Shown here piece by piece: positions 395-55,218 of a stretch of 59,395 nucleotides of DNA. The notes beneath the pieces are model-generated. The model had not been told where the DNA came from and ran no database searches. It was given only the letters and a program-made list of their open reading frames with translations. This DNA is from Candidatus Methanophagales archaeon. GTDB taxonomy: Archaea > Halobacteriota > Syntropharchaeia > Alkanophagales > Methanospirareceae. Each line of letters begins with the position of its first letter. Position 1 is the stretch's first letter. A program made the position numbers and the translations under genes. The stretch spans positions 1 to 59,395 of the forward strand of contig JACUTR010000001.1 of the NCBI GenBank assembly GCA_014859735.1. The letters run 5' to 3'.

Positions 395-535
395 ATGTGG
401 GGCTCTGCCCCATCACGGGCTCCGCCCGTGCCTCCGCAAACCTTTTCTTAGTAAGAAAAGGTTTATCAAAAGAATATATCTTTCTTAATAAACGTTCTTT
501 CTTTAGAAAGAAAAGGTTTACTGTAAGGGCTTATG
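395..535. repeat. composite repeat cluster: GC-rich palindromic modules (395-437), AT-rich type E element (438-520) and ctgtaagggctta module (521-535)
   Basis: tggggcNNNgcccca; cacgggctccgcccgtg (identical to 53911-53927); the 27-nt perfect palindrome aaaccttttctta-g-taagaaaaggttt (438-464); ttctttc-ttta-gaaagaa; then ctgtaagggcTTA overlapping the ndk stop. Confidence 0.85.
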
Positions 536-3251: not shown

Positions 3252-4217
3252 TTATACCGTCTCTATCCCAAAAGACTCCAGTAACACCTCGGGATTTATC
3301 TCACCACTGGTAAACGTTTTACCACTGGTCAAATCGTTCACGGTAATCTCCGCCGGAGCGAACATCGCAGCATCTACTTTGAAGAAGTCGAACCCAGCGT
3401 TCTTAAAGGTGACGTAGAATGGCTGTCCATAATCACGTGAGTTCCGTGAGGGCACTTTCTGTACATAGCCTTTCAATTCCTCTACCTTCTCGTACTCCAC
3501 CGCATAATACACGCGACCACAGTAGATAATGCAATCATTGGTCGAACCCATACATCTCACATCATCACCAACGAGTGGTGAGATCGGTACGATCCCATGA
3601 GCATGTTTTATGCTGTTTATATCAAACCCTAACGTTTCGAGCTTGTGAATCCCGGTTTCCACGACCCGCGCAGATATTTGCACCGTGCCCGCAACGGAGG
3701 CCGTCGGCACCACCACGATGTAGAGGTCCTCGGGTTCCACCCGGCAGGCCTTTGCAATCTCCGCTGTCACTTCCTCGTCAGGTATCGTGCTGCTTTCTAA
3801 GACCAATACCGCCTCATCCGCATCGTCCGTATACATGATCTTCTCATAGAGTTCGCGGGGATTGAGCGAAAGCGCCCTTGCGGGTCCCGACCCCATGCCG
3901 AAGAATTTCTTCACCTTTATCCGCCATCCCGCAAATTGCGATGCCATGCAGGCGAGTATAGGATGGTCTGTGGTAACTTCTATTGCCGGTACGGCGAGTT
4001 TACCAAGGTTAAAACTGCTGAATGTAAGATCCGCAAGATCAGCCATACATATTCTCGCGACGTATAACCCCGCTTCAAATCCCCCCTCTTCTTCCACACC
4101 TGCATCTATTATCGTTGTCCCATTATCCAACTCCTCGATACCCACATTCAACTCATCTGCATTGTCCATCATCTCTTCAAATACGTCCAATCCATACTCA
4201 TTCACGCTTATCATCAT
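3252..4217 (-). CDS. mch: methenyltetrahydromethanopterin cyclohydrolase
   Basis: MISVNEYG... N-terminus, GSGPARAL and NGTTIIDAG are typical of Mch. I place the start at ATG 4217 (or 4214) rather than the ORF-track 4250. Confidence 0.9.
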
Positions 4218-8455: not shown

Positions 8456-8487
8456 TTTCTTTGATCAAACTTTCTTTGTGAAAGAAG
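8456..8487. repeat. AT-rich palindromic repeat, type C
   Basis: tttctttgatcaaactttcttt (22 nt) is identical to 31465-31486. It continues into a ctttc...gaaag hairpin. Confidence 0.8.
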
Positions 8488-20664: not shown

Positions 20665-20764
20665 GTTTAAAAAATCCCAAATCCCAATATAGGCGAGAAA
20701 TACAAAATCTAAATACTACCAAATTCTTGGGATTTGGAAATAGGGATTTACTTGGGATTTGGTA

Positions 20765-20828
20765 GTGGGGCCCCGCCCCACGGCCCCGAAAACCCTGTAA
20801 GGGTTTACCTGAAAGGCTCAGTAAGGGC
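20765..20828. repeat. GC-rich modular palindromic repeat
   Basis: Modules are gtggggcNNNgccccac, ggccccgaaa, accctgtaagggt, cctgaaagg and ctcagtaagggctt. The same module set occurs at 38710-38789 and 49288-49331. Confidence 0.85.
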
Positions 20829-20856
20829 TTATGTGACATTGGGATTTTCGCTGACG

Positions 20857-31464: not shown

Positions 31465-31499
31465 TTTCTTTGATCAAACTTTCTTTTTGAAAAAGAAAG
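31465..31499. repeat. AT-rich palindromic repeat, type C (copy 2)
   Basis: Its first 22 nt are identical to 8456-8477, followed by the ctttctttttgaaaaagaaag palindrome. Confidence 0.8.
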
Positions 31500-31504
31500 T
31501 TTGA

Positions 31505-38419: not shown

Positions 38420-38622
38420 TGCATCGTTTCCCTTCTGTTCATTACCTCCCTAGATACTATTTTTTAATTTTTCGATTATATAGTTAAAGAAAGATAATAT
38501 TGCTCAAATTTAGCAACATGGGGCGCATAACAAGTTGTAGTAGACGATGGGGTTGCATGCGATTGGAGAAATGCCTGATCTCTACGGGATATAAGGTCGT
38601 GGGGCATCTTTGGGGGAAAGCG

Positions 38623-39948
38623 TTACGCAATAACTTCTCCCATCAAATACGTGCTCTTTGCCTCCCGTATCCGCACCGTATACGTGGCACCGAGTGGCAA
38701 ATCATTATAAACGGGGCTCCGCCCCGTTGACCCCGAAATCGCGGGCTCTGCCCGCGTTCCCGCGAGCCTGAAAGGCTCAGTAAGGGTTTTTAGTACGATC
38801 ATCCGATACGCCGGGTCCCTTCCTATTACGCCTCCTTTCTTCCCCTTCTCCGTTATTAAAACAGGGAGTTCCTTTCCTTCCAACTCGTTATTCTTCTCGA
38901 GAACAATCGTGCGATAAAGCGAAGAGAAGATTCTCGACCTCCTTTTCTTCTCCCGCTCCAGCAAGTCCTTTAAATTCGATGCTTCCGTCCCCGGTCGTGG
39001 AGAAAACCTCGTTATATTCACTTTTTCCGGTTTTACTTCATCCAACAGGTTCAAAGAGGAGAAGAAATCCTCTTCCGTCTCGGTTGGAAATCCAATGATG
39101 AAATCCGTGCAGAGTGTGCTGTATTCGAATCGCTTTCGTATGCTTTTTACTAGCTCAACGAAATCATCAGCTTTATAATCCCTTCTCATATCTCTCAGCA
39201 CCTTATCAGAGCCAGATTGCACGGGCACGTGAAAGAATTTGAAGATCTTCTTGGAGTCGAATGCCTCAAGGAGTTCATCTAAGATCCGAATCACGGTAAA
39301 TGGGTTCATCATGCCCACTCGTATTCTAAAATCACCCTCCAGAGAGGTCACCATGTCTAACAACTCGGGGAGCTTTAAGGTACCTAACTTCTCCCAGCCA
39401 TAGGCACTACAGTCCTGTGCAGTAATTCTTATTTCCTTCGCACCTCGTTCCACCACACTTTTAACCGCTTCGCATATCTTTTCGGGCTTGTAGCTTCTCA
39501 TATCGCCCTTCGCTTGTCTCACGATGCAATACGAACATTCCCCTACGCAGCCTACTGCTATCGGAATGATACCAACCACACCGTCAACATCAAGCCCTTG
39601 ATCCTCACTATACCTATCACCGATATCTCGTGGTGTTAGCAGTGTCACATCTTCGCCTAAAATACTCTTCACCAATCCAGGCTGTGCTGCCGCCATACAA
39701 CCTGCTACAACCACCTCTTTACTCTCGTCCTTCAACTCCTTCAGCCTCTTTATCACATTTAATTCCGTCCTTTTCGTTACCGTGCACGTATTCACGATAA
39801 CAACATCGGCTTTACTTTCCTCTACGAGCTCGTGCCCATTATTCCTTAGGATAGCGCGCATCTTCATCGTGTCACCCACATTGGCAGTGCAGCCGAACGT
39901 TTCGAAGTAAAATTTTTTGGGCTTTATGTATGTGTTTACTAAAGGCAT
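38623..39948 (-). CDS. radical-SAM methylthiotransferase, archaeal MiaB-like (UPF0004 + radical SAM + TRAM)
   Basis: 441 aa: N-terminal FETFGCTAN...NTCTV, a CxxxCxxC cluster (CVGECSYC) and a C-terminal TRAM-like domain interrupted by the 27 codons encoded by repeat 38710-38789. Confidence 0.85.
   Translation of the reverse strand: MPLVNTYIKPKKFYFETFGCTANVGDTMKMRAILRNNGHELVEESKADVVIVNTCTVTKRTELNVIKRLKELKDESKEVVVAGCMAAAQPGLVKSILGEDVTLLTPRDIGDRYSEDQGLDVDGVVGIIPIAVGCVGECSYCIVRQAKGDMRSYKPEKICEAVKSVVERGAKEIRITAQDCSAYGWEKLGTLKLPELLDMVTSLEGDFRIRVGMMNPFTVIRILDELLEAFDSKKIFKFFHVPVQSGSDKVLRDMRRDYKADDFVELVKSIRKRFEYSTLCTDFIIGFPTETEEDFFSSLNLLDEVKPEKVNITRFSPRPGTEASNLKDLLEREKKRRSRIFSSLYRTIVLEKNNELEGKELPVLITEKGKKGGVIGRDPAYRMIVLKTLTEPFRLAGTRAEPAISGSTGRSPVYNDLPLGATYTVRIREAKSTYLMGEVIA
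38710..38789. repeat. GC-rich modular palindromic repeat, 80-nt copy inside a CDS
   Basis: Reverse complement of 43906-43985 with 79/80 identity by hand alignment. Confidence 0.9.
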
Positions 39949-39952
39949 CTCT

Positions 39953-39996
39953 CTTTCCTTTCCTTTCCTTTCCTTTCCTTTCCTTTCCTTTCCTTT
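39953..39996. repeat. pentanucleotide microsatellite (CTTTC)8 plus a partial unit
   Basis: Counted directly: eight perfect units at 39953-39992 plus cttt. It begins 4 nt upstream of the ATG at 39948 (minus strand). Confidence 0.95.
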
Positions 39997-41258: not shown

Positions 41259-43796
41259 TTACGTGCTCTTTTGAATCACATCTACTGCTACCACACGCTC
41301 GCCATCATTTACATGCATCAGCCTCACACCCTGCGTATTTCTCCCTTTCATGGGAATACTTCGGGCAGAAATTCGTGTCACCATCCCGTTAGAAGTGGTA
41401 ACCATCAACTCATCGTCATTCTTTACTTGCTTTATACATACCACGTTCCCATTTCTTTCCATAACTCTCATACTAATCACACCTTTACCACCCCGATGTG
41501 TTTCTCGGTACGCATTCAACCTCGTTCTTTTACCATACCCTTTCTCGGTTATCGTAACGACCTTTGAAGAACTCAAACTCAAATTAACGGCATCAATACT
41601 CGCTATCTCATCGTCCCTTTCCAACCTCATCCCCCTTACTCCTGATGCATATCTGCCCATCTCCCGCAGTTCCTCTTCCTGGAACAAGATTGCCTTTCCA
41701 TTCTTAGAGCTTATGATTATACCATTCCGCTCTCCACCCAGGTGGGCGTGTACGGGCTCAATCAACGCCACATCAGCTAACGAATCGCCCTTGATACGAT
41801 CAATCCTAACGGCAACGATCCCCGTGGCGCGTATAGACCTCAGCTTAACAAGTGAGCTCCTTTTTACCACGCCTCGTTTGGTAGCGAAGACGATAAATGA
41901 ATCCTCGGTTTTAGTTTCTATACCCTTATCTACCTCCTCAGGTATAGCGATAGCGGCTACGAATTTTTCCCTTTCTTCGGTCTCCGTTTGGCTTATGCTC
42001 AGTCCTGGGATGTTCAACAGGGGTTTCCCTTTTGTATGTCGGCTACTTGAAGGGATTTCGTAGGTCTTCACCTGGTATGCCCTGCCAGAATCGGTGAAGA
42101 GGATCAGACGTTCCCGTGTGGACGCGCGTATGAAATTGACGATCGCATCATCTTCTCTCTTCTCTATCACGGCAATTCCTTTTCCTCCCCGTCTTTGCTG
42201 CTTAAAAATGTTCGCCGGTAATCGCTTCACATAGTCACGCTGCGTAAAAAAGAGGATGACTTCTTCCTCCTCTATAAAATCGCGCTCGCTTAAAATCACC
42301 TCTTCCTCTATTTCGGTCCTTCTCGCATCGCCGTACTTATCCTTCAGCTCGATCAGTTCTTCTTTTATGATGCCACGTATTCGGGCTTCACTTGCCAGCA
42401 CCTCTTTTAACCACGTTATCTTCGTCTCCAGCTCTGATCGCTCAGTTTCTATTTTGTCACGCTCTAAAGCACTCAATCGCGAGAGCCGCATCTCCAGTAT
42501 CTCTTTCGCCTGCTCCTCGCTCAGCTCAAATTTCTCAATCAGAGCGGATTTTGCCGTTTTGCTATCGCTTGAAGCTTTTATAAGCCTTATCACCTCGTCT
42601 ATATGCGCTATTGCAATGATTAAGCCCTCTACTATGTGCTTTCGCTTCTCAGCACGATCTAATTCATATTGCAGCCTTCTGATCGTTACTTCTCTCCTGT
42701 GCGTGATGTAACATTCGATCAACTCTTTGAGCGTTAATATCCGTGGTTCGCCATCCACCAGGGCGAGATTGATTACACCAAACGTGGTTTCCAATTGCGT
42801 GTGTTTATAAAGCTTGTTTAAAACAATCGAGGAATTAACTCCGGTTTTCAGTTCTATTACAATCCTCAATCCTTTGCGATCTGATTCATCTCTTAATCCC
42901 GTAATGCTGTCCACCTTGTATCTCCTGACGAACTCAGCTATCTCCTCTACCAGTTTGCTTTTGTTTACCTGGTATGGTATCTCGTTGACGATTATTCGCT
43001 CCCTCTTTGCCGTTCTTTCTATCTCCACCGTTGCTCTTAGCTTTAAGCTGCCCCTACCAGTTTCATACGCCTGTTTTATGCCGTCGTAGCCAGAAATGAT
43101 TGCGCCTGTGGGGAAATCAGGAGCTCTTATTATCAGCATCAGCTCTCCAATACTCACGTTTGGCTCGTCTATCACTCTTATTATGCCATCCACCACTTCG
43201 GCTAAATTATGGGGGGGCATGTTAGTAGCCATACCAACAGCGATACCGGAAGAGCCGTTTATCAAGAGGTTAGGGAGCTTTGCGGGTAAAATCAGTGGCT
43301 CTTTGAGCGTGTTATCAAAGTTAGGACTCCATGCGACGGTATCTTTATCGAGATCAACCAGCAGTTCCTCGGCTATCTTTGATAGCCGCACTTCGGTGTA
43401 TCGCATTGCAGCAGCAGCATCTCCGTCTATACTCCCGAAATTGCCCTGACCATCTATCAACGGGTACCGGTGAGCAAAATCCTGCGCCATTCTCACCATG
43501 GTATCGTAAACGGCAACGTCACCGTGGGGATGGTATTTCCCGAGAACATCTCCTACTATCCGCGCTGATTTCTTATGCGGTTTGTCATGGGGGACGCCGA
43601 GTTCATGCATTCCGTATAATATACGACGATGCACCGGTTTTAGCCCATCACGAGCGTCAGGAAGAGCTCTCCCCACAATTACGCTCATTGCGTAGTCTAT
43701 GTACGAGCTCTTCATCTCGTCTTCAACGCTGACTTCTATCACACGCTCACGGTCATCGTCTCGCATCTCGTTTCTCTCATGCTCGTTTTCGTTCAT
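41259..43796 (-). CDS. gyrA: DNA gyrase subunit A
   Basis: 845 aa: [27 protein letters not shown], the active-site AAMRYTE and a C-terminal beta-pinwheel repeat region. Confidence 0.97.
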
Positions 43797-43905
43797 AGCT
43801 ATAGTTAGAATTATGGATTCGAAGGTAATAAAGGATGAGAGCGTCTCAAAACCCGCAGCCGGTAAACTTTTATAAGGGATAAAGGAGATACTAATTACTA
43901 AATAT

Positions 43906-43985
43906 AAACCCTTACTGAGCCTTTCAGGCTCGCGGGAACGCGGGCAGAGCCCGCGATTTCGGGGTCAACGGGGCGAAGCCCCGTT
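43906..43985. repeat. GC-rich modular palindromic repeat, 80-nt intergenic copy
   Basis: Lies in the gyrA/dnaK divergent spacer and ends 23 nt before the dnaK ATG. Modules are ccttactgagcctttcaggctc, gcgggcagagcccgc and aacggggcgaagccccgtt. Confidence 0.9.
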
Positions 43986-44008
43986 AGAAAGGATTTGGAG
44001 GCTAAAAA

Positions 44009-45841
44009 ATGGCCAAAACAATAGGTATAGATGTGGGAACGAGCAATTCGGCTGCGGCTGCGCTCATAGGTGGTAAGGCCACGATAATACCGAGTGCCGA
44101 AGGGACGAGCCTTGGCGGTAAAGCCTTCCCTTCCTATGTGGCATTTACAAAAGATGGCCAGAGGCTGGTTGGAGAACCTGCGAAAAGACAAGCGGTCTCC
44201 AATCCAGAAGGTACGATAACAGCGATTAAACGAAAGATGGGAACTGATTATAAAGTGAAGGTTCATGGCAGGGAGTACACGCCGCAGCAGATCACTGCCT
44301 TCATACTCCAGAAGATAAAAACCGATGCAGAAGCATTTTTGGGCGATAAAGTTGACAAGGCGGTCTTGACCGTACCGGCATACTTCAATGACAATCAGAG
44401 GACGGCGACAAAGGATGCGGGTAGAATTGCAGGCATGGAAGTGGTTAGAATAATTAATGAGCCAACCGCCGCAGCACTTGCTTATGGGATTGACAAAACA
44501 GAGAAAGATCAGAAGATCCTGGTATACGATTTTGGTGGTGGCACTCTTGACGTAACGATTATGGAGTTCAGTGAAGGCGTATTCGAGGTCATATCCACGA
44601 GTGGCGACACCCAATTGGGTGGCACCGATATGGATACCACAATCGTGAATTACGTGGCGGGGGAGTTCAAGAAGGAATCGGGAATAGATGTACGGAACGA
44701 CAAGATGGCGTTGCAAAGGTTGAGAGAGGCAGGTGAAAAAGCGAAGATCGAACTCTCGAATGTGCTTGAGACTGACATCAATCTGCCATTCATTACGGCG
44801 GATGCCACGGGCCCGAAGCATCTGGTCATGAAGCTCACCCGAGCGAAACTGGAGGAACTCGTACGGCCGATCGTTGATAAATGTAAAGGCTCAATTGATC
44901 AGGCATTGAAAGATGCGAAACTCACTCCAGAGGAGATCACCAAGATCATATTCGTCGGCGGACCAACGAGGATGCCGATAGTCCAGAAATTTGTCGAGGA
45001 TTACGTGGGTAGAAAAGGGGAGCGCGGTGTTGATCCGATGGAATGTGTGGCGATGGGTGCTGCAATACAAGCGGGCGTATTAACCGGAGAAGTGAAGGAT
45101 GTGGTGCTTTTGGATGTCACGCCACTTTCCTTGGGCATTGAGACGTTAGGCGGCATATTTACCAAATTAATCGAACGGAATACCACGATTCCCACGAGGA
45201 AGGGTGAGATATTTTCGACTGCGGCAGATAGTCAGACGAGTGTTGAGATCAACGTTCTACAAGGTGAGCGCGAATTTGCACGAGATAACGTCAGTCTGGG
45301 GCGATTTCATCTGATGGGTATCCCGCCAGCGCCACGGGGCGTGCCTCAAATCGAGGTTACCTTCGATATCGATTCCAATGGCATCTTAAATGTCACCGCT
45401 AAGGATTTGGGAACGGGAAAGCAACAGGCGATCACGATCACAGCCTCGACAAAACTATCGCAAAGTGAGATCGATCGGATGATGGAGGATGCAAAGCGAT
45501 TTGAAGAGGAGGATAAAAGGCGTCGCGAGATTGTTGAGACGAAGAACCAGGCTGAGAATCTTATATATACCACCGAAAGATCTCTCAGGGATTTGTCCGA
45601 CAAGGTTACGAGCGACGAACGAACGAAGATCACTGCACTCATCGAACGACTAAGAGAGACGGTAAAGAGCGAGGATGTCCACAAAATGCGGGCTGAGATG
45701 GAAGAACTGACACGTGCATTCCACGACATCTCAATGCGCGCCTATCAACAAGCAGGAGCGCAGTATCAGCAACGAGAGGCTCCTAAGGAAGAAAAAGGAC
45801 CCAGGGATGCGGAATACAAGGTGATGGATGAGGAGGAATAA
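44009..45841 (+). CDS. dnaK: molecular chaperone DnaK (Hsp70)
   Basis: 610 aa with [19 protein letters not shown] and VGGPTRMP motifs. SD ggagg lies upstream. Confidence 0.98.
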
Positions 45842-48104: not shown

Positions 48105-49457
48105 TTATTGTTTCAGGTACTCTCGCAGCAGAACCGTTGCATACGAGCCTTTAGGCAGGGAAAACTGTACTGCCAGTTTAAATCGTCCGGGATTGAGTTC
48201 GTCTTCGTTAAGGTTATCATCGCTCAACTTCACCTTCACCGGCACCAAGACTGGTCTTCTCGTGCCTTTGGAACTTATTTCCGGCATCTTTTCGATAGAA
48301 AAAGTGCTTAATTCTACCGCTTCATCCCCAAGAACCTGCCTTTCTATCTCTCCTTGCACACCATCTGCAAACTCAGTTTCAGAGCCAACGAGAGGAGCAG
48401 TGACAAAAGCCCTTCCCCGCTTTATCAGCCGGTTTATGCCCTCTATTTTAGCTTCGGTGACGTTCTCCACCTTATCCGGGTCCGCAATTCCAAGATCAGT
48501 GTGAAAACAGACCACATCACCCACTACCGCTTCGTTAAAGGGTACGTTTCGTTTCATCCGGTGACTTAAAAGGAGATTGAAGAGATACGCTTGATACGCA
48601 TGAACGAAGAGTTTTTGTAAGTTCTTTGGGAGGACAGAAAAAGCAGAAATGAAATTTGCTTCACCTTCACTACCGCTTTTTACCAGCTCATTCAGCATCG
48701 CTCGTTCGTATCGTAAGAACAATGGCATTCGTTTCAAGCACTCTTTGAGTTCACCATTCCTGCATACCATCCGCGCCTGTTTCGCCTCCTCGCTTTCCTC
48801 TGGGAAGATATCGGAGATGTAAGACATCACCGCTTCTTGTAGTTCACCGTTTATCAGGTGTTTTCCCACGATATGCGTTATCGGGCGGCTGATGCCAAAC
48901 CGCTGAACGCCGAAGAAATTGGGTATTCCGCCCGTATTCTCTATTTCTTTTGTTATCAACTCGATTTTTTCCATTATCTCGTCTTTATTCCCTTCTATGC
49001 CACGAATAACAATCTCAAACTCGTTTCCATAAAGGTCGCCCAAGGAAACGGCTTTGTTCGATCGTCCGATTATTTTAAAGGAGACATCAGCGATTTTTAC
49101 TCGGTTTAGCTCGTCTTCATCGGTATCCCAGATACTAATGCGCTGCGTTGTCAGGGCGAATTTGTCCTTGGTGCCGGCGAACCCAATCCTGTTCCTGCTC
49201 ACGCGCAGCCTCCGTGAGATTTCTCTTATTACGGTATGAGTATCCCAGTTCTCCTTCGTCAGTTCTGCGATTAAATATCTCCCCTCTAACGGGGCTTCGC
49301 CCCGTTGGCCCCGCAAGCCCTGTAAGGGCTTTGTAATCTCACGCACGATGAAGTCAGTGGGTATTGTTTTTATCGTTCCACCTATTCCGTCGGGGTGCGT
49401 TGCGTAAAACCAGATCCCTATCCGTTTTTCGTACTCCGGGCTCTCTTTTAGTTCCAT
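48105..49457 (-). CDS. truD: tRNA pseudouridine synthase TruD/Pus7 family
   Basis: 450 aa with GIGGTIKTIPTDFIVREI, FAGTKDK (catalytic Asp region) and NFFGVQRFG motifs. 14-17 codons near residue 45-60 are encoded by repeat modules. Confidence 0.88.
   Translation of the reverse strand: MELKESPEYEKRIGIWFYATHPDGIGGTIKTIPTDFIVREITKPLQGLRGQRGEAPLEGRYLIAELTKENWDTHTVIREISRRLRVSRNRIGFAGTKDKFALTTQRISIWDTDEDELNRVKIADVSFKIIGRSNKAVSLGDLYGNEFEIVIRGIEGNKDEIMEKIELITKEIENTGGIPNFFGVQRFGISRPITHIVGKHLINGELQEAVMSYISDIFPEESEEAKQARMVCRNGELKECLKRMPLFLRYERAMLNELVKSGSEGEANFISAFSVLPKNLQKLFVHAYQAYLFNLLLSHRMKRNVPFNEAVVGDVVCFHTDLGIADPDKVENVTEAKIEGINRLIKRGRAFVTAPLVGSETEFADGVQGEIERQVLGDEAVELSTFSIEKMPEISSKGTRRPVLVPVKVKLSDDNLNEDELNPGRFKLAVQFSLPKGSYATVLLREYLKQ
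49288..49331. repeat. GC-rich palindromic repeat modules inside the truD CDS
   Basis: aacggggcttcgccccgtt is the exact reverse complement of 43967-43985. cccgcaagccctgtaagggctt (49310-49331) is identical to 53954-53975. Confidence 0.9.
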
Positions 49458-53806: not shown

Positions 53807-53896
53807 TTTACGTTCTATACTATGATAGGGTGATGAGATTAAAATACCATTCGAGCTTTGGCTTATTTATAAATGGTGGAAATGTACTTCCGCTCT

Positions 53897-53975
53897 GTGG
53901 CCTCTGCCCATCACGGGCTCCGCCCGTGCCCCCGCAAGCCCAGGAGAGGCTTACCCGCAAGCCCTGTAAGGGCTT
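53897..53975. repeat. GC-rich modular palindromic repeat array
   Basis: gtggcctctgcccat, cacgggctccgcccgtg (identical to 414-430), cccccgcaa, ...cccgcaagccctgtaagggctt. The last bases overlap the moeA stop codon. Confidence 0.85.
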
Positions 53976-55218
53976 ACCATGAGTAATATTCGGTTACCGC
54001 GACCAGCTCTCCTTCTGCTACTCCTTCCTTATTCTCCGGGATTACGACAAAGCCGTCCGACTTGGTCATGCTGGATAAGATGCCCGAGCCGCTTACCCGT
54101 ATCGGCTCTGCAAAATACCCCTGCTCGGTGCGAAGCACCTTCACACGCACGAAATCGGTTCTCCCAACTGCCGAAGGGATTTTCTTGCTCGCCCGAGCAA
54201 AGATTTTCCTTTGCTCTTCTGTCACACCGTGCATCGCATACAAAAAGGGGCGAACGAGCAGTTCAAACGCAGCTATCGTCGCCACAGGATAACCGGGGAG
54301 AACGAATATCGGCTTGGTGTTGATGATGCCGAAACCGGTTGGTTCCCCGGGTCGAATCGCGACGCCATGGAATATAAGCTCCCCTAAATCCTCGACTGCA
54401 TCACCCAGGAAATCTCTGGTACCTACCGAACTCCCACCACTCACTAATAACCCCTCACACCCTCGTTCTAACGACGAACGGAGTGCGTCCTTTATCTCGT
54501 CGTAATTGTCACGTACTATGCCGATTCTATACGGATTTGCGATCTTTTGCGTTAATGCTGCAAGGGTATAACTATTCGAATCTGCGATCTTCTGTTTCCT
54601 TTGCCACTGGTCGTGCTCGGCCGACTGCAACGCAGGGTCTATCAGCTCGTCGCCCGTGGCGATTATGCCGAGCTTTGCCCTCTTATACACCCTTATCGTT
54701 CTTGTAAAAAGAGATGCGAGCATGCCGAGATCATGAGCTCGCAGTATCTTCCCGGCCTTTAAGATCGCTTCGCCCTTCTTCACATCCTCACCCTGAAAAG
54801 AGACGTTTTTACCCGGTGTAACGGGCTTGAAAATCTCCACGGTATCGCCTCTTTCCCTCGTATATTCGAGCATAACAACCGCGTTGCTGCCTTGTGGCAG
54901 CGGCATCCCGGTTGCTATCGGCACGCAATCACCCTCCGCAAGTTCTGCGCGGTTTTCTTCTCCTCCCCCACTCTTCTTTCTCTTCAAAAGCACGGGATTT
55001 TGCGGAGATGCGCCAAAAGAGTCCTCGCCTCGAATCGCATACCCATCCATCGCAGCCCGGTCAAAAGGGGGGCTGTCGATGGGCGAAAGAATATCTTCTG
55101 CTAAAACCCTGGTCAATGCATCCTCAAATCGGATTTCCTCGAGTTCTGTCCTCTCTGCATGCGGTAACACCGTCTTTAATGCCTCTTCCCATGAGATAAG
55201 CGTACGAAAAAGCTTCAT
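53974..55218 (-). CDS. moeA: molybdopterin molybdenumtransferase
   Basis: 414 aa with PPFDRAAMDGYA, GGSSVGTRDF and LPGYPVA motifs. Confidence 0.9.
   Translation of the reverse strand: MKLFRTLISWEEALKTVLPHAERTELEEIRFEDALTRVLAEDILSPIDSPPFDRAAMDGYAIRGEDSFGASPQNPVLLKRKKSGGGEENRAELAEGDCVPIATGMPLPQGSNAVVMLEYTRERGDTVEIFKPVTPGKNVSFQGEDVKKGEAILKAGKILRAHDLGMLASLFTRTIRVYKRAKLGIIATGDELIDPALQSAEHDQWQRKQKIADSNSYTLAALTQKIANPYRIGIVRDNYDEIKDALRSSLERGCEGLLVSGGSSVGTRDFLGDAVEDLGELIFHGVAIRPGEPTGFGIINTKPIFVLPGYPVATIAAFELLVRPFLYAMHGVTEEQRKIFARASKKIPSAVGRTDFVRVKVLRTEQGYFAEPIRVSGSGILSSMTKSDGFVVIPENKEGVAEGELVAVTEYYSW

Follow-up and report, generated by a model that had tools for sequence, protein, structure and literature searches.

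A composite hairpin repeat read in frame in an ANME-1 methylthiotransferase gene probably belongs to a lineage-wide family of self-copying elements

We analyzed a 59,395-nucleotide (nt) stretch of DNA from a Candidatus Methanophagales archaeon (hereafter, the window), in which an 80-nt palindromic repeat lies in frame inside a radical-SAM tRNA methylthiotransferase gene and recurs in the intergenic region between gyrA and dnaK. The names of orthologues place the organism in ANME-1 (Methanophagales), and the window holds an archaeal rRNA operon. As a composite, the 80-mer belongs to a large family of modular hairpins. Most probably, this family is lineage-wide and consists of small, non-coding, self-copying ANME-1 DNA elements, which are read through when they lie in genes.

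In a mismatch-tolerant search, positions 38710-38789 (+) matched the reverse complement of 43906-43985 at 79/80, with no such match in 100 shuffles. As the original prediction had stated, the sole mismatch is the centre loop base of aacggggc-tNc-gccccgtt (tcc vs ttc). With weaker flanks included, the similarity of the two copies extends to 95 nt at 94%. A hairpin scan recovered the chain of three perfect short palindromes that had been described in the 80-mer, and an 85-nt stretch folded well beyond shuffled sequences (z about -4.5 to -5).

The host open reading frame (ORF) is intact and stop-free across the element, with matches to the Pfam families UPF0004, Radical_SAM and TRAM. The TRAM match comprises profile positions 3-35 of 61 and terminates exactly at the insert, in agreement with the proposed split of this domain; alignments to solved MiaB end at residue 386. 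Of the earlier annotation as a MiaB-like enzyme, the radical-SAM methylthiotransferase part stood, but the protein is not MiaB proper: its named close relatives are tRNA t6A37 methylthiotransferases or CDKAL1-like. We aligned 29 ANME-1 proteins (28 orthologues and the window's own). In 25 of them the insert is missing and ...YRM(I/V)V(L/I)x is joined directly to xDLPLG, showing that the 27 residues are indeed an insertion. Extra residues at this site were present only in the window protein (27 residues) and its three closest relatives: P0001 and P0002 have 15 each (89% identical), and P0003 has a different set of 27 (TLTGFSGKPLRACGGTGRAREGRSPVY) with the same edges as in the window. At the DNA level, the gains over the empty allele are +81 nt (window), +45 nt (P0001/P0002) and +81 nt (P0003). 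The variants have their flanking modules in common and differ in the middle modules. The comparison with the empty allele also set the limits of the inserted segment: the two copies do share 80 nt, but 80 is not a multiple of 3, and the insertion measures 81 nt in the gene (38710-38790) and 82 nt in the intergenic region. The genic insert is translated in element frame R1, and its terminal TAA is read as AAA. In the AlphaFold model, it is a low-confidence coil between two confident TRAM strands (residues 389-412, predicted local distance difference test [pLDDT] <50; strands 383-386 and 422-430). A tryptic peptide predicted from the insert region is SPVYNDLPLGATYTVR.

The match could instead be an assembly or binning artefact, or the host gene a decaying pseudogene. 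The source organism is uncultured, and repeats can mislead assemblers. However, the insertion was found at the same codon in independent assemblies from different projects, in identical form in L047 (Yes46-13) and as variants in L001, L060 and L002. The ORF has all its domains, and the ratio of nonsynonymous to synonymous substitution rates (dN/dS) against relatives is 0.19-0.27. The probability of an artefact or pseudogene is thus negligible. Such ratios indicate purifying selection on the host genes.

The intergenic copy is located 22 nt upstream of the dnaK ATG (44009). Three related genomes without the copy (L001, a syntenic 87-kb contig of a relative, L047 and L060) contain identical empty alleles of the dnaK-gyrA site, CCTTTC/TATTTAC, and are about 94% identical to the window in the flanks. 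Because three relatives keep an empty site with near-identical flanks, the 82-nt copy is, on this sequence comparison, a recent gain in the window's lineage. The whole composite entered the site as a single clean block, and the junction fits either a TA duplication or no duplication. The original prediction had proposed a mobile or copied element rather than protein-level conservation. This is supported by the missing intergenic copy in the three relatives and by the occurrence of the unit at dozens of unrelated loci. The related claim of recent copying, drawn from near-identity, held with respect to mobility, but the near-identity could partly reflect homogenization between copies. In the region 43868-44008, the copy lies downstream of a TATA-like CTTTTATAAGGG; at 22 nt 5' of the start codon, it would give the dnaK mRNA of this lineage, and of no other, a strongly structured leader of 82 nt.

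The consensus unit of the family is 46 nt long, TAACGGGGCNNNGCCCCGTT-GACCCCG-AAAACCCTGTAAGGGTTTA, and forms two hairpins with 3-nt loops. Its ends (TAACGGGGC... / ...AAGGGTTTA) are sharply bounded and uniform (TAAC...GTTTA) over dozens of unrelated sites. Composites carry additional hairpins, either following ...CCCCGAAA or within the hairpin-2 loop, and newly added modules tend to occupy the loop or apex of a palindrome already in place. The shared module GGGGCNNNGCCCCGTTGRCCCCG was scanned for in one genome per species. It was detected in 92 stretches, overwhelmingly in ANME-1 metagenome-assembled genomes (MAGs) among the 83 matches listed, which amounts to about 80 ANME-1 copies. Among these listed matches, about two dozen stretches came from "archaeon Yes46-13" and about 30 from "Nitrosotalea sp. 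BE2011_44_29", and the bacterial matches were single and chance-like. Both MAGs encode the methylthiotransferase with insert and the gyrA-dnaK neighbourhood, so they are ANME-1. Contigs L060, L023 and other DYFG01 contigs filed under "Nitrosotalea sp. BE2011_44_29" contain ANME-1 genes in ANME-1 order, and this public label looks wrong.

Another MAG (L078) contains the exact composite of the window at a third locus, which is unrelated to the other two. In 13 metagenome contigs, the inner block of this composite was joined to other first hairpins, forming a mosaic of common modules. Thus, members of the family are dispersed in multiple copies, are polymorphic for presence and absence among close relatives, and show modular and nested variation at one site. 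The copy count, termini and target duplications had been named as points to check; many copies with sharp termini were found, but no consistent target-site duplication. With four more loci in the window and dozens in other ANME-1 genomes, the repeat is not confined to the initial pair. The occurrence of the insertion at the same codon in independent assemblies speaks against a misassembled match. Subfamilies differ in compensatory ways that preserve both stems (C-G/U-A at one position and G-C/A-U at a second). In 96% of cells the stem positions were paired, and 0/500 shuffles reached the score; this covariation is supporting evidence only, because subfamily relatedness inflates such counts.

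Database searches with the element gave the following results. Nothing in the window reached the gathering score of an Rfam 15 family, and 38600-38900 had no Rfam match at E<=1. The canonical 33-mer had no exact match in IMG/VR viral contigs. The 43-aa composite peptide yielded no candidates in a word-indexed protein search, and the 34-aa R2 translation of the intergenic copy yielded 0 matches in an exhaustive HMMER search. Both queries are too short or compositionally biased, so the peptide searches are silent on abundance.

Next, we consider the copies in genes. Among the 81 archaeal matches to the shared module, 18 lay in ORFs that run on without a stop for 60 codons or more to either side. 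All 18 had one orientation and frame R2, with the translation KPLQG(F/L)RGQRG(G/E/R)APL; three of the six frames are fully open. The hosts include NAD(P)HX epimerase/dehydratase (YjeF/NnrD), a pyridoxal phosphate (PLP) enzyme, TruA, an Asn-synthase/diphthamide-synthase, a FlpD/ferredoxin protein, a class I aminoacyl-tRNA synthetase (aaRS), TraB, Clp1 and chorismate synthase. In the last of these, the 15 residues of the element fill a gap relative to solved structures. A wider two-hairpin pattern retrieved 88 units, 28 of them inside long ORFs of housekeeping enzymes. Relative to the gene, 27/28 genic units were oriented alike, compared with 13 vs 10 for gene-adjacent intergenic units (Fisher P=0.001). 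Since intergenic copies are unbiased, a coupling of orientation to transcription was ruled out. Even if the genic cases are reduced to 12 independent events, the use of one frame in 12/12 would be unlikely under a 2:1 prior (P=0.008). The genic share of units is about 32%, compared with at least about 77% of the window as ORF, indicating that insertions into genes are mostly purged.

Filled and empty alleles provided the net lengths. In the NnrD gene, L066 has +108 nt and L014 has +75 nt relative to the empty L046. The gyrA gene of Yes46-13 has a net gain of 42 nt and reads ETKT[KPLQGLRGRGAEPHR]DSF. All measured genic net lengths are multiples of 3 (81, 45, 81, 27, 108, 75, 78, 42), compared with 82 for the clean intergenic gain; a further filled/empty pair was found at an intergenic site. 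The element is thus read through in frame in many conserved genes, and frame and orientation are selected in genic copies only. Several host proteins carry two inserts. As a side observation, L041, L044, L049 and L014 each have two separate element-derived inserts per protein, sometimes in different frames, and one two-insert ANME-1 protein contains KPLQGLRGRGAEPH... internally and a second, 14-residue insert at its C-terminus.

Removal at the RNA level had been raised as an alternative. In this case, the element would be an archaeal mRNA intron excised by the tRNA-splicing endonuclease at a bulge-helix-bulge, and the protein would be made without the 27 residues. Archaeal mRNA introns cut by this endonuclease exist (cbf5, Crenarchaeota), and as RNA the element folds into a very stable structure (-44.6 kcal/mol, z=-4.3). 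However, a strict helix-bulge-helix-bulge-helix search (at the exon-intron junctions, a 4-bp helix between two 3-nt bulges) revealed no motif bracketing the insert in the methylthiotransferase gene or in truD, the host of a second in-frame copy in the window. The total number of matches equalled the shuffled expectation (2 vs 2.8). Moreover, an excised intron needs neither frame nor orientation, yet 18/18 long-ORF copies use one of three open frames, the measured genic net insertions are all multiples of 3 and the orientation bias is limited to genic copies. Variable inner modules at one site would also alter the junction pairing. Altogether, the genic frame and orientation selection, the lengths and the lack of a bulge-helix-bulge argue for translation rather than removal from the RNA, and splicing is very improbable.

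Alternatively, the insert could stay in the mRNA and ribosomes could hop over it by programmed translational bypassing. Such bypassing has been described for inserts derived from GC clusters in Magnusiomyces mitochondria, a precedent for GC-rich hairpin inserts in coding regions (PMC8811140), and the present insert does form stable hairpins. Nevertheless, skipped inserts need neither frame nor freedom from stops, whereas the genic copies are selected for frame, stop-freeness and orientation. In addition, the methylthiotransferase insert lacks matching take-off and landing codons (CTA before; TAT/AAT after). We regard bypassing as hardly credible and retain translation of the insert as the reading of the genic copies.

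By repeat and hairpin scans and direct reading, six loci of the family were found in the window, including the in-frame copy in TruD (Table 1). In the TruD copy, a 45-nt unit takes the place of 18 nt of DNA, and the closest orthologues read NRTEGSE at this site. Here, a modular insert of greater length is present in a more distant ANME-1-THS orthologue. Two further TruD orthologues carry LCGAPPHDPASPVRAY at another site, which represents the same module types translated in the opposite orientation. In an alignment to PDB 1Z2Z, the TruD insert appears as a gap; the AlphaFold model of TruD is too poor to place it (mean pLDDT 59, N-terminus <50). In many ANME-1 orthologues of MtaB and TruD, the protein ends in a variable tail of 5-40 residues (e.g. 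...SPSVHAAHHPQ...). These tails are unrelated to one another and may come from other repeats that extend into stop codons.

Table 1. Members of the hairpin family in the window and two of their host genes
Positions	Strand	Feature	Details
38623..39948	(-)	Host gene, radical-SAM tRNA t6A37 methylthiotransferase (MtaB/CDKAL1 type)	441 aa; element interrupts the TRAM domain
38710..38790	(-)	Composite hairpin element, in frame in the methylthiotransferase	81 nt = 27 codons
43905..43986	(+)	Intergenic composite element, same as the one in the methylthiotransferase	82 nt, between gyrA and dnaK
48105..49457	(-)	Host gene, tRNA pseudouridine-13 synthase TruD	450 aa; dN/dS 0.23
49287..49332	(-)	Canonical two-hairpin unit, in frame in TruD	15 residues, frame R2; net +27 nt vs closest relative
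396..466	(+)	Intergenic family member	Hairpins TGGGGC/GCCCCA, CACGGGC/GCCCGTG and extended hairpin-2
20763..20832	(+)	Intergenic family member, between convergent ORFs	GTGGGGC/GCCCCAC, AAACCCT/AGGGTTT, CCTGAAAGGCTCAGTAAGGGCTT module
53895..53977	(+)	Intergenic family member, four hairpin modules	Abuts stop codon of MoeA-like ORF 53974-55218 (-)
41735..41770	(-)	Probable degenerate genic remnant in gyrA	11 residues; L001 has hairpin-2 module AAGCCCTTACAGGGCTT (KPLQGLR) at the same site

The segment in gyrA is probably an old, partly decayed genic copy; the KPLQGLR-coding module of the relative is located at L001 8238-8254. The TAA stop codon of the MoeA-like gene falls in the last module of the four-hairpin element, so this element may have reshaped the MoeA-like C-terminus. 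The junction of the four-hairpin element with the MoeA-like ORF recurs in metagenome contig L103. The window has 46.6% GC, and all 36-nt windows across the elements have at least 72% GC. Other GC-rich islands in ORFs of the window (e.g. 3854-3902 and 45310-45358) were rejected as elements; they consist of normal coding sequence that is conserved.

The window also holds a second palindrome family, which is AT-rich (31475-31503, 8456-8483 and 442-520; CAAACTTTCTTTTTGAAAAAGAAAGTTTG, with an TTTGATCAAACTTT core), with one copy directly 5' of a tRNA gene. In L066 and L014 (other ANME-1), an AT-rich palindrome is in frame in the NnrD gene and has a GC-rich unit nested at its centre. Two features flank the methylthiotransferase gene. 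An (AGGAA)n microsatellite of about 8 units (39955-39995) lies between its start and a divergent FMN-dependent dehydrogenase-like gene, and is 36 nt shorter in L001. Directly after its stop codon, 47 nt (38576-38622) that are not hairpin-like are missing in L001.

How might such copies arise? In the proposed scheme, the basic unit is the 46-nt double hairpin with fixed ends TAA...TTA, and larger members would form when further hairpin modules are inserted into or beside an existing unit. New copies would land genome-wide, and most insertions in genes would be lost. Surviving genic copies would be those with a net length in multiples of 3, no stop codon and a position in a surface loop; they would be transcribed, translated as a short Gly/Arg/Pro-rich loop and inherited with the gene. 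In the copying step, the hairpins would be recognized on single-stranded DNA by a trans-acting enzyme that leaves no target duplication. Recognition of defined ends is suggested by the uniformity of the ends over dozens of sites and by the arrival of the 82-nt composite as a clean block. By analogy with repetitive extragenic palindromes (REPs) mobilized by REP-associated tyrosine transposases (RAYTs) and with elements derived from IS200/IS605, copying by an HUH/Y1-type transposase is quite conceivable, if somewhat short of an even bet. Break-repair capture or template switching between copies is a doubtful candidate for this step, and so is a mechanism yet to be described.

Break repair could even account for the family without any transposition. 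Hairpin modules would then be captured in break repair or by template switching during replication and subsequently homogenized by gene conversion, including the near-identity of the 38710 and 43906 copies. Consistent with this, no target duplication recurs, target bases were replaced at several junctions, and the modules are shuffled into many combinations. Furthermore, the empty TruD allele shares microhomology with the element (AACCGAGGGAAG vs AACGGGGCGAAG), the methylthiotransferase insert is identical in two species whose host gene is 6.6% apart (P=0.004), and yeast mitochondrial GC clusters act alike (PMC8811140). On the other hand, the unit ends are sharp and uniform (TAAC...GTTTA) at dozens of unrelated sites, and the 82-nt composite entered the dnaK site as one clean block; both look like the recognition of defined ends. 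We consider a purely repair-based origin rather unlikely and favour a family of self-copying elements.

Several points weigh against self-copying elements that are read through in genes. No consistent target-site duplication was seen in six filled/empty pairs, and there is no long terminal inverted repeat; the inverted termini TAA(A)C / GTTTA comprise 3-5 nt. No transposase is evident among the 46 long ORFs of the window, which were not all profiled, and ANME-1 genomes were not searched for the enzyme. At several genic junctions, 2-18 target bases are replaced instead of a clean insertion, a pattern that repair-linked capture or later adjustment would explain no less well than transposition. 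Identity between copies may reflect gene conversion instead of recent movement, because the methylthiotransferase insert shows 0/82 differences between the window and Yes46-13, against 6.6% in the remainder of the gene (P=0.004). Some of the genic copies form orthologous pairs, which reduces the independent events from 27 to about 12-15. We infer the presence of the insert in mRNA and protein from selection signatures in the sequences, and the low pLDDT of the methylthiotransferase insert is no proof of a disordered loop.

If the proposed reading is true, it extends to Archaea the selfish palindromes that code for protein, until now an oddity of Rickettsia and mitochondria, and shows that they emerge again and again wherever small hairpin elements multiply. 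ANME-1, an uncultured group, is central to the marine methane sink. The elements make lineage-specific insertions in marker genes (GyrA, aaRS, TruD). They can disturb alignments, phylogenies, domain calls and structure predictions, and are likely assembly breakpoints. Filled and empty sites in close relatives offer a natural series of how an essential enzyme accommodates a new loop, and can serve as strain-level markers. Sharp ends without target duplication point to a mobilization mechanism that is identifiable in ANME-1 enrichment cultures. A bolder and rather speculative view is that ANME-1 hosts an unrecognized class of self-propagating double-hairpin modules, with hairpin-targeted movement, no target duplication and an enzyme new to mobile elements. 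Such modules would prefer the loops and apices of existing palindromes and would thereby build mosaics. Arg/Gly/Pro-rich loops would then have been seeded in dozens of RNA- and DNA-handling enzymes (TruD, TruA, MtaB, aaRS, Clp1, GyrA), and the hairpin family would be a lineage-specific source of new protein surface. Some of the seeded loops may be functional, for example in RGG-like nucleic-acid contacts.

We compared the family with known short palindromic elements. REPs and the mosaics they form (bacterial interspersed mosaic elements, BIMEs) are likewise short, high-copy hairpins with some copies inside genes, and PMC3733652 describes REPs as thought to be mobilized on single-stranded DNA by the HUH tyrosine transposase RAYT, with no classical target duplications. 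Like them, the ANME-1 units are mainly extragenic, about two thirds lying outside long ORFs. Unlike them, the 80-mer and the canonical ANME-1 unit have no GTAG or CGTC tag; GTAG is found at the start of a few variant hairpins only (GTAGGGGC...GCCCCTAC, in metagenome contigs). Lacking the tag, the element does not count as a REP. [quoted passage not shown] However, MITEs take their defining features, terminal inverted repeats and target-site duplications, from a parent insertion sequence, whereas the ANME-1 termini comprise 3-5 nt, and neither a consistent duplication nor a parent element was found. A MITE in the strict sense was ruled out, as the family lacks terminal inverted repeats of about 10 bp or longer and a target-site duplication of fixed length.

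The double-hairpin and repetitive hairpin-forming elements of fungal and sponge mitochondria resemble the ANME-1 family in their two-hairpin unit, in evidence of mobility without flanking duplications and in the occasional copy within a coding region (PMC2800124). In contrast to it, they are organellar and of unrelated sequence, and no large set of in-frame enzyme insertions has been reported for them. Yeast mitochondrial GC clusters (e.g. in var1) are short GC-rich palindromes in an AT-richer genome, mostly intergenic and with optional in-frame insertions; they insert into each other's loops, and by merging and shuffling they give rise to new clusters (PMC8811140). In the ANME-1 family, the nested and mosaic forms and the in-frame insertions are alike. 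GC clusters differ in that they are organellar, have AG/TAG terminal repeats regarded as target duplications and affect one or few genes. The ANME-1 family, for its part, is located in an archaeal chromosome, has TAA/TTA ends and has hit at least 12 genes. Not being organellar, it is neither a mitochondrial GC cluster nor a mitochondrial hairpin element.

The likeness to Rickettsia palindromic elements (RPEs) that the original prediction had pointed out holds at the level of behaviour, with in-frame copies in at least 12 different housekeeping genes of ANME-1. According to PMC10969869, RPEs too are dispersed palindromes located between genes and in frame in many unrelated housekeeping genes; they are read through as an extra peptide, which is judged to be compatible with folding of the protein. 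With a length of about 100-150 bp, RPEs are bacterial (Rickettsiales) and have a CGTC-tagged end (PMC3733652), whereas the ANME-1 unit is 46 nt long (composites about 80-110 nt), archaeal and modular, with TAA...TTA ends. No sequence relationship between the two is apparent. With no CGTC tag, another size and another host, the ANME-1 element is not an RPE. In the literature searched, which included prokaryotic MITE and REP surveys and gave incomplete coverage, we found no such element in ANME-1 and no in-frame palindromic element in any archaeon, in agreement with the original prediction. The ANME-1 hairpin family is apparently the first of its kind in Archaea and affects an unusually large number of essential genes. 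By analogy of behaviour, its closest counterparts, with which it is best filed, would be the Rickettsia palindromic elements and the yeast mitochondrial GC clusters.

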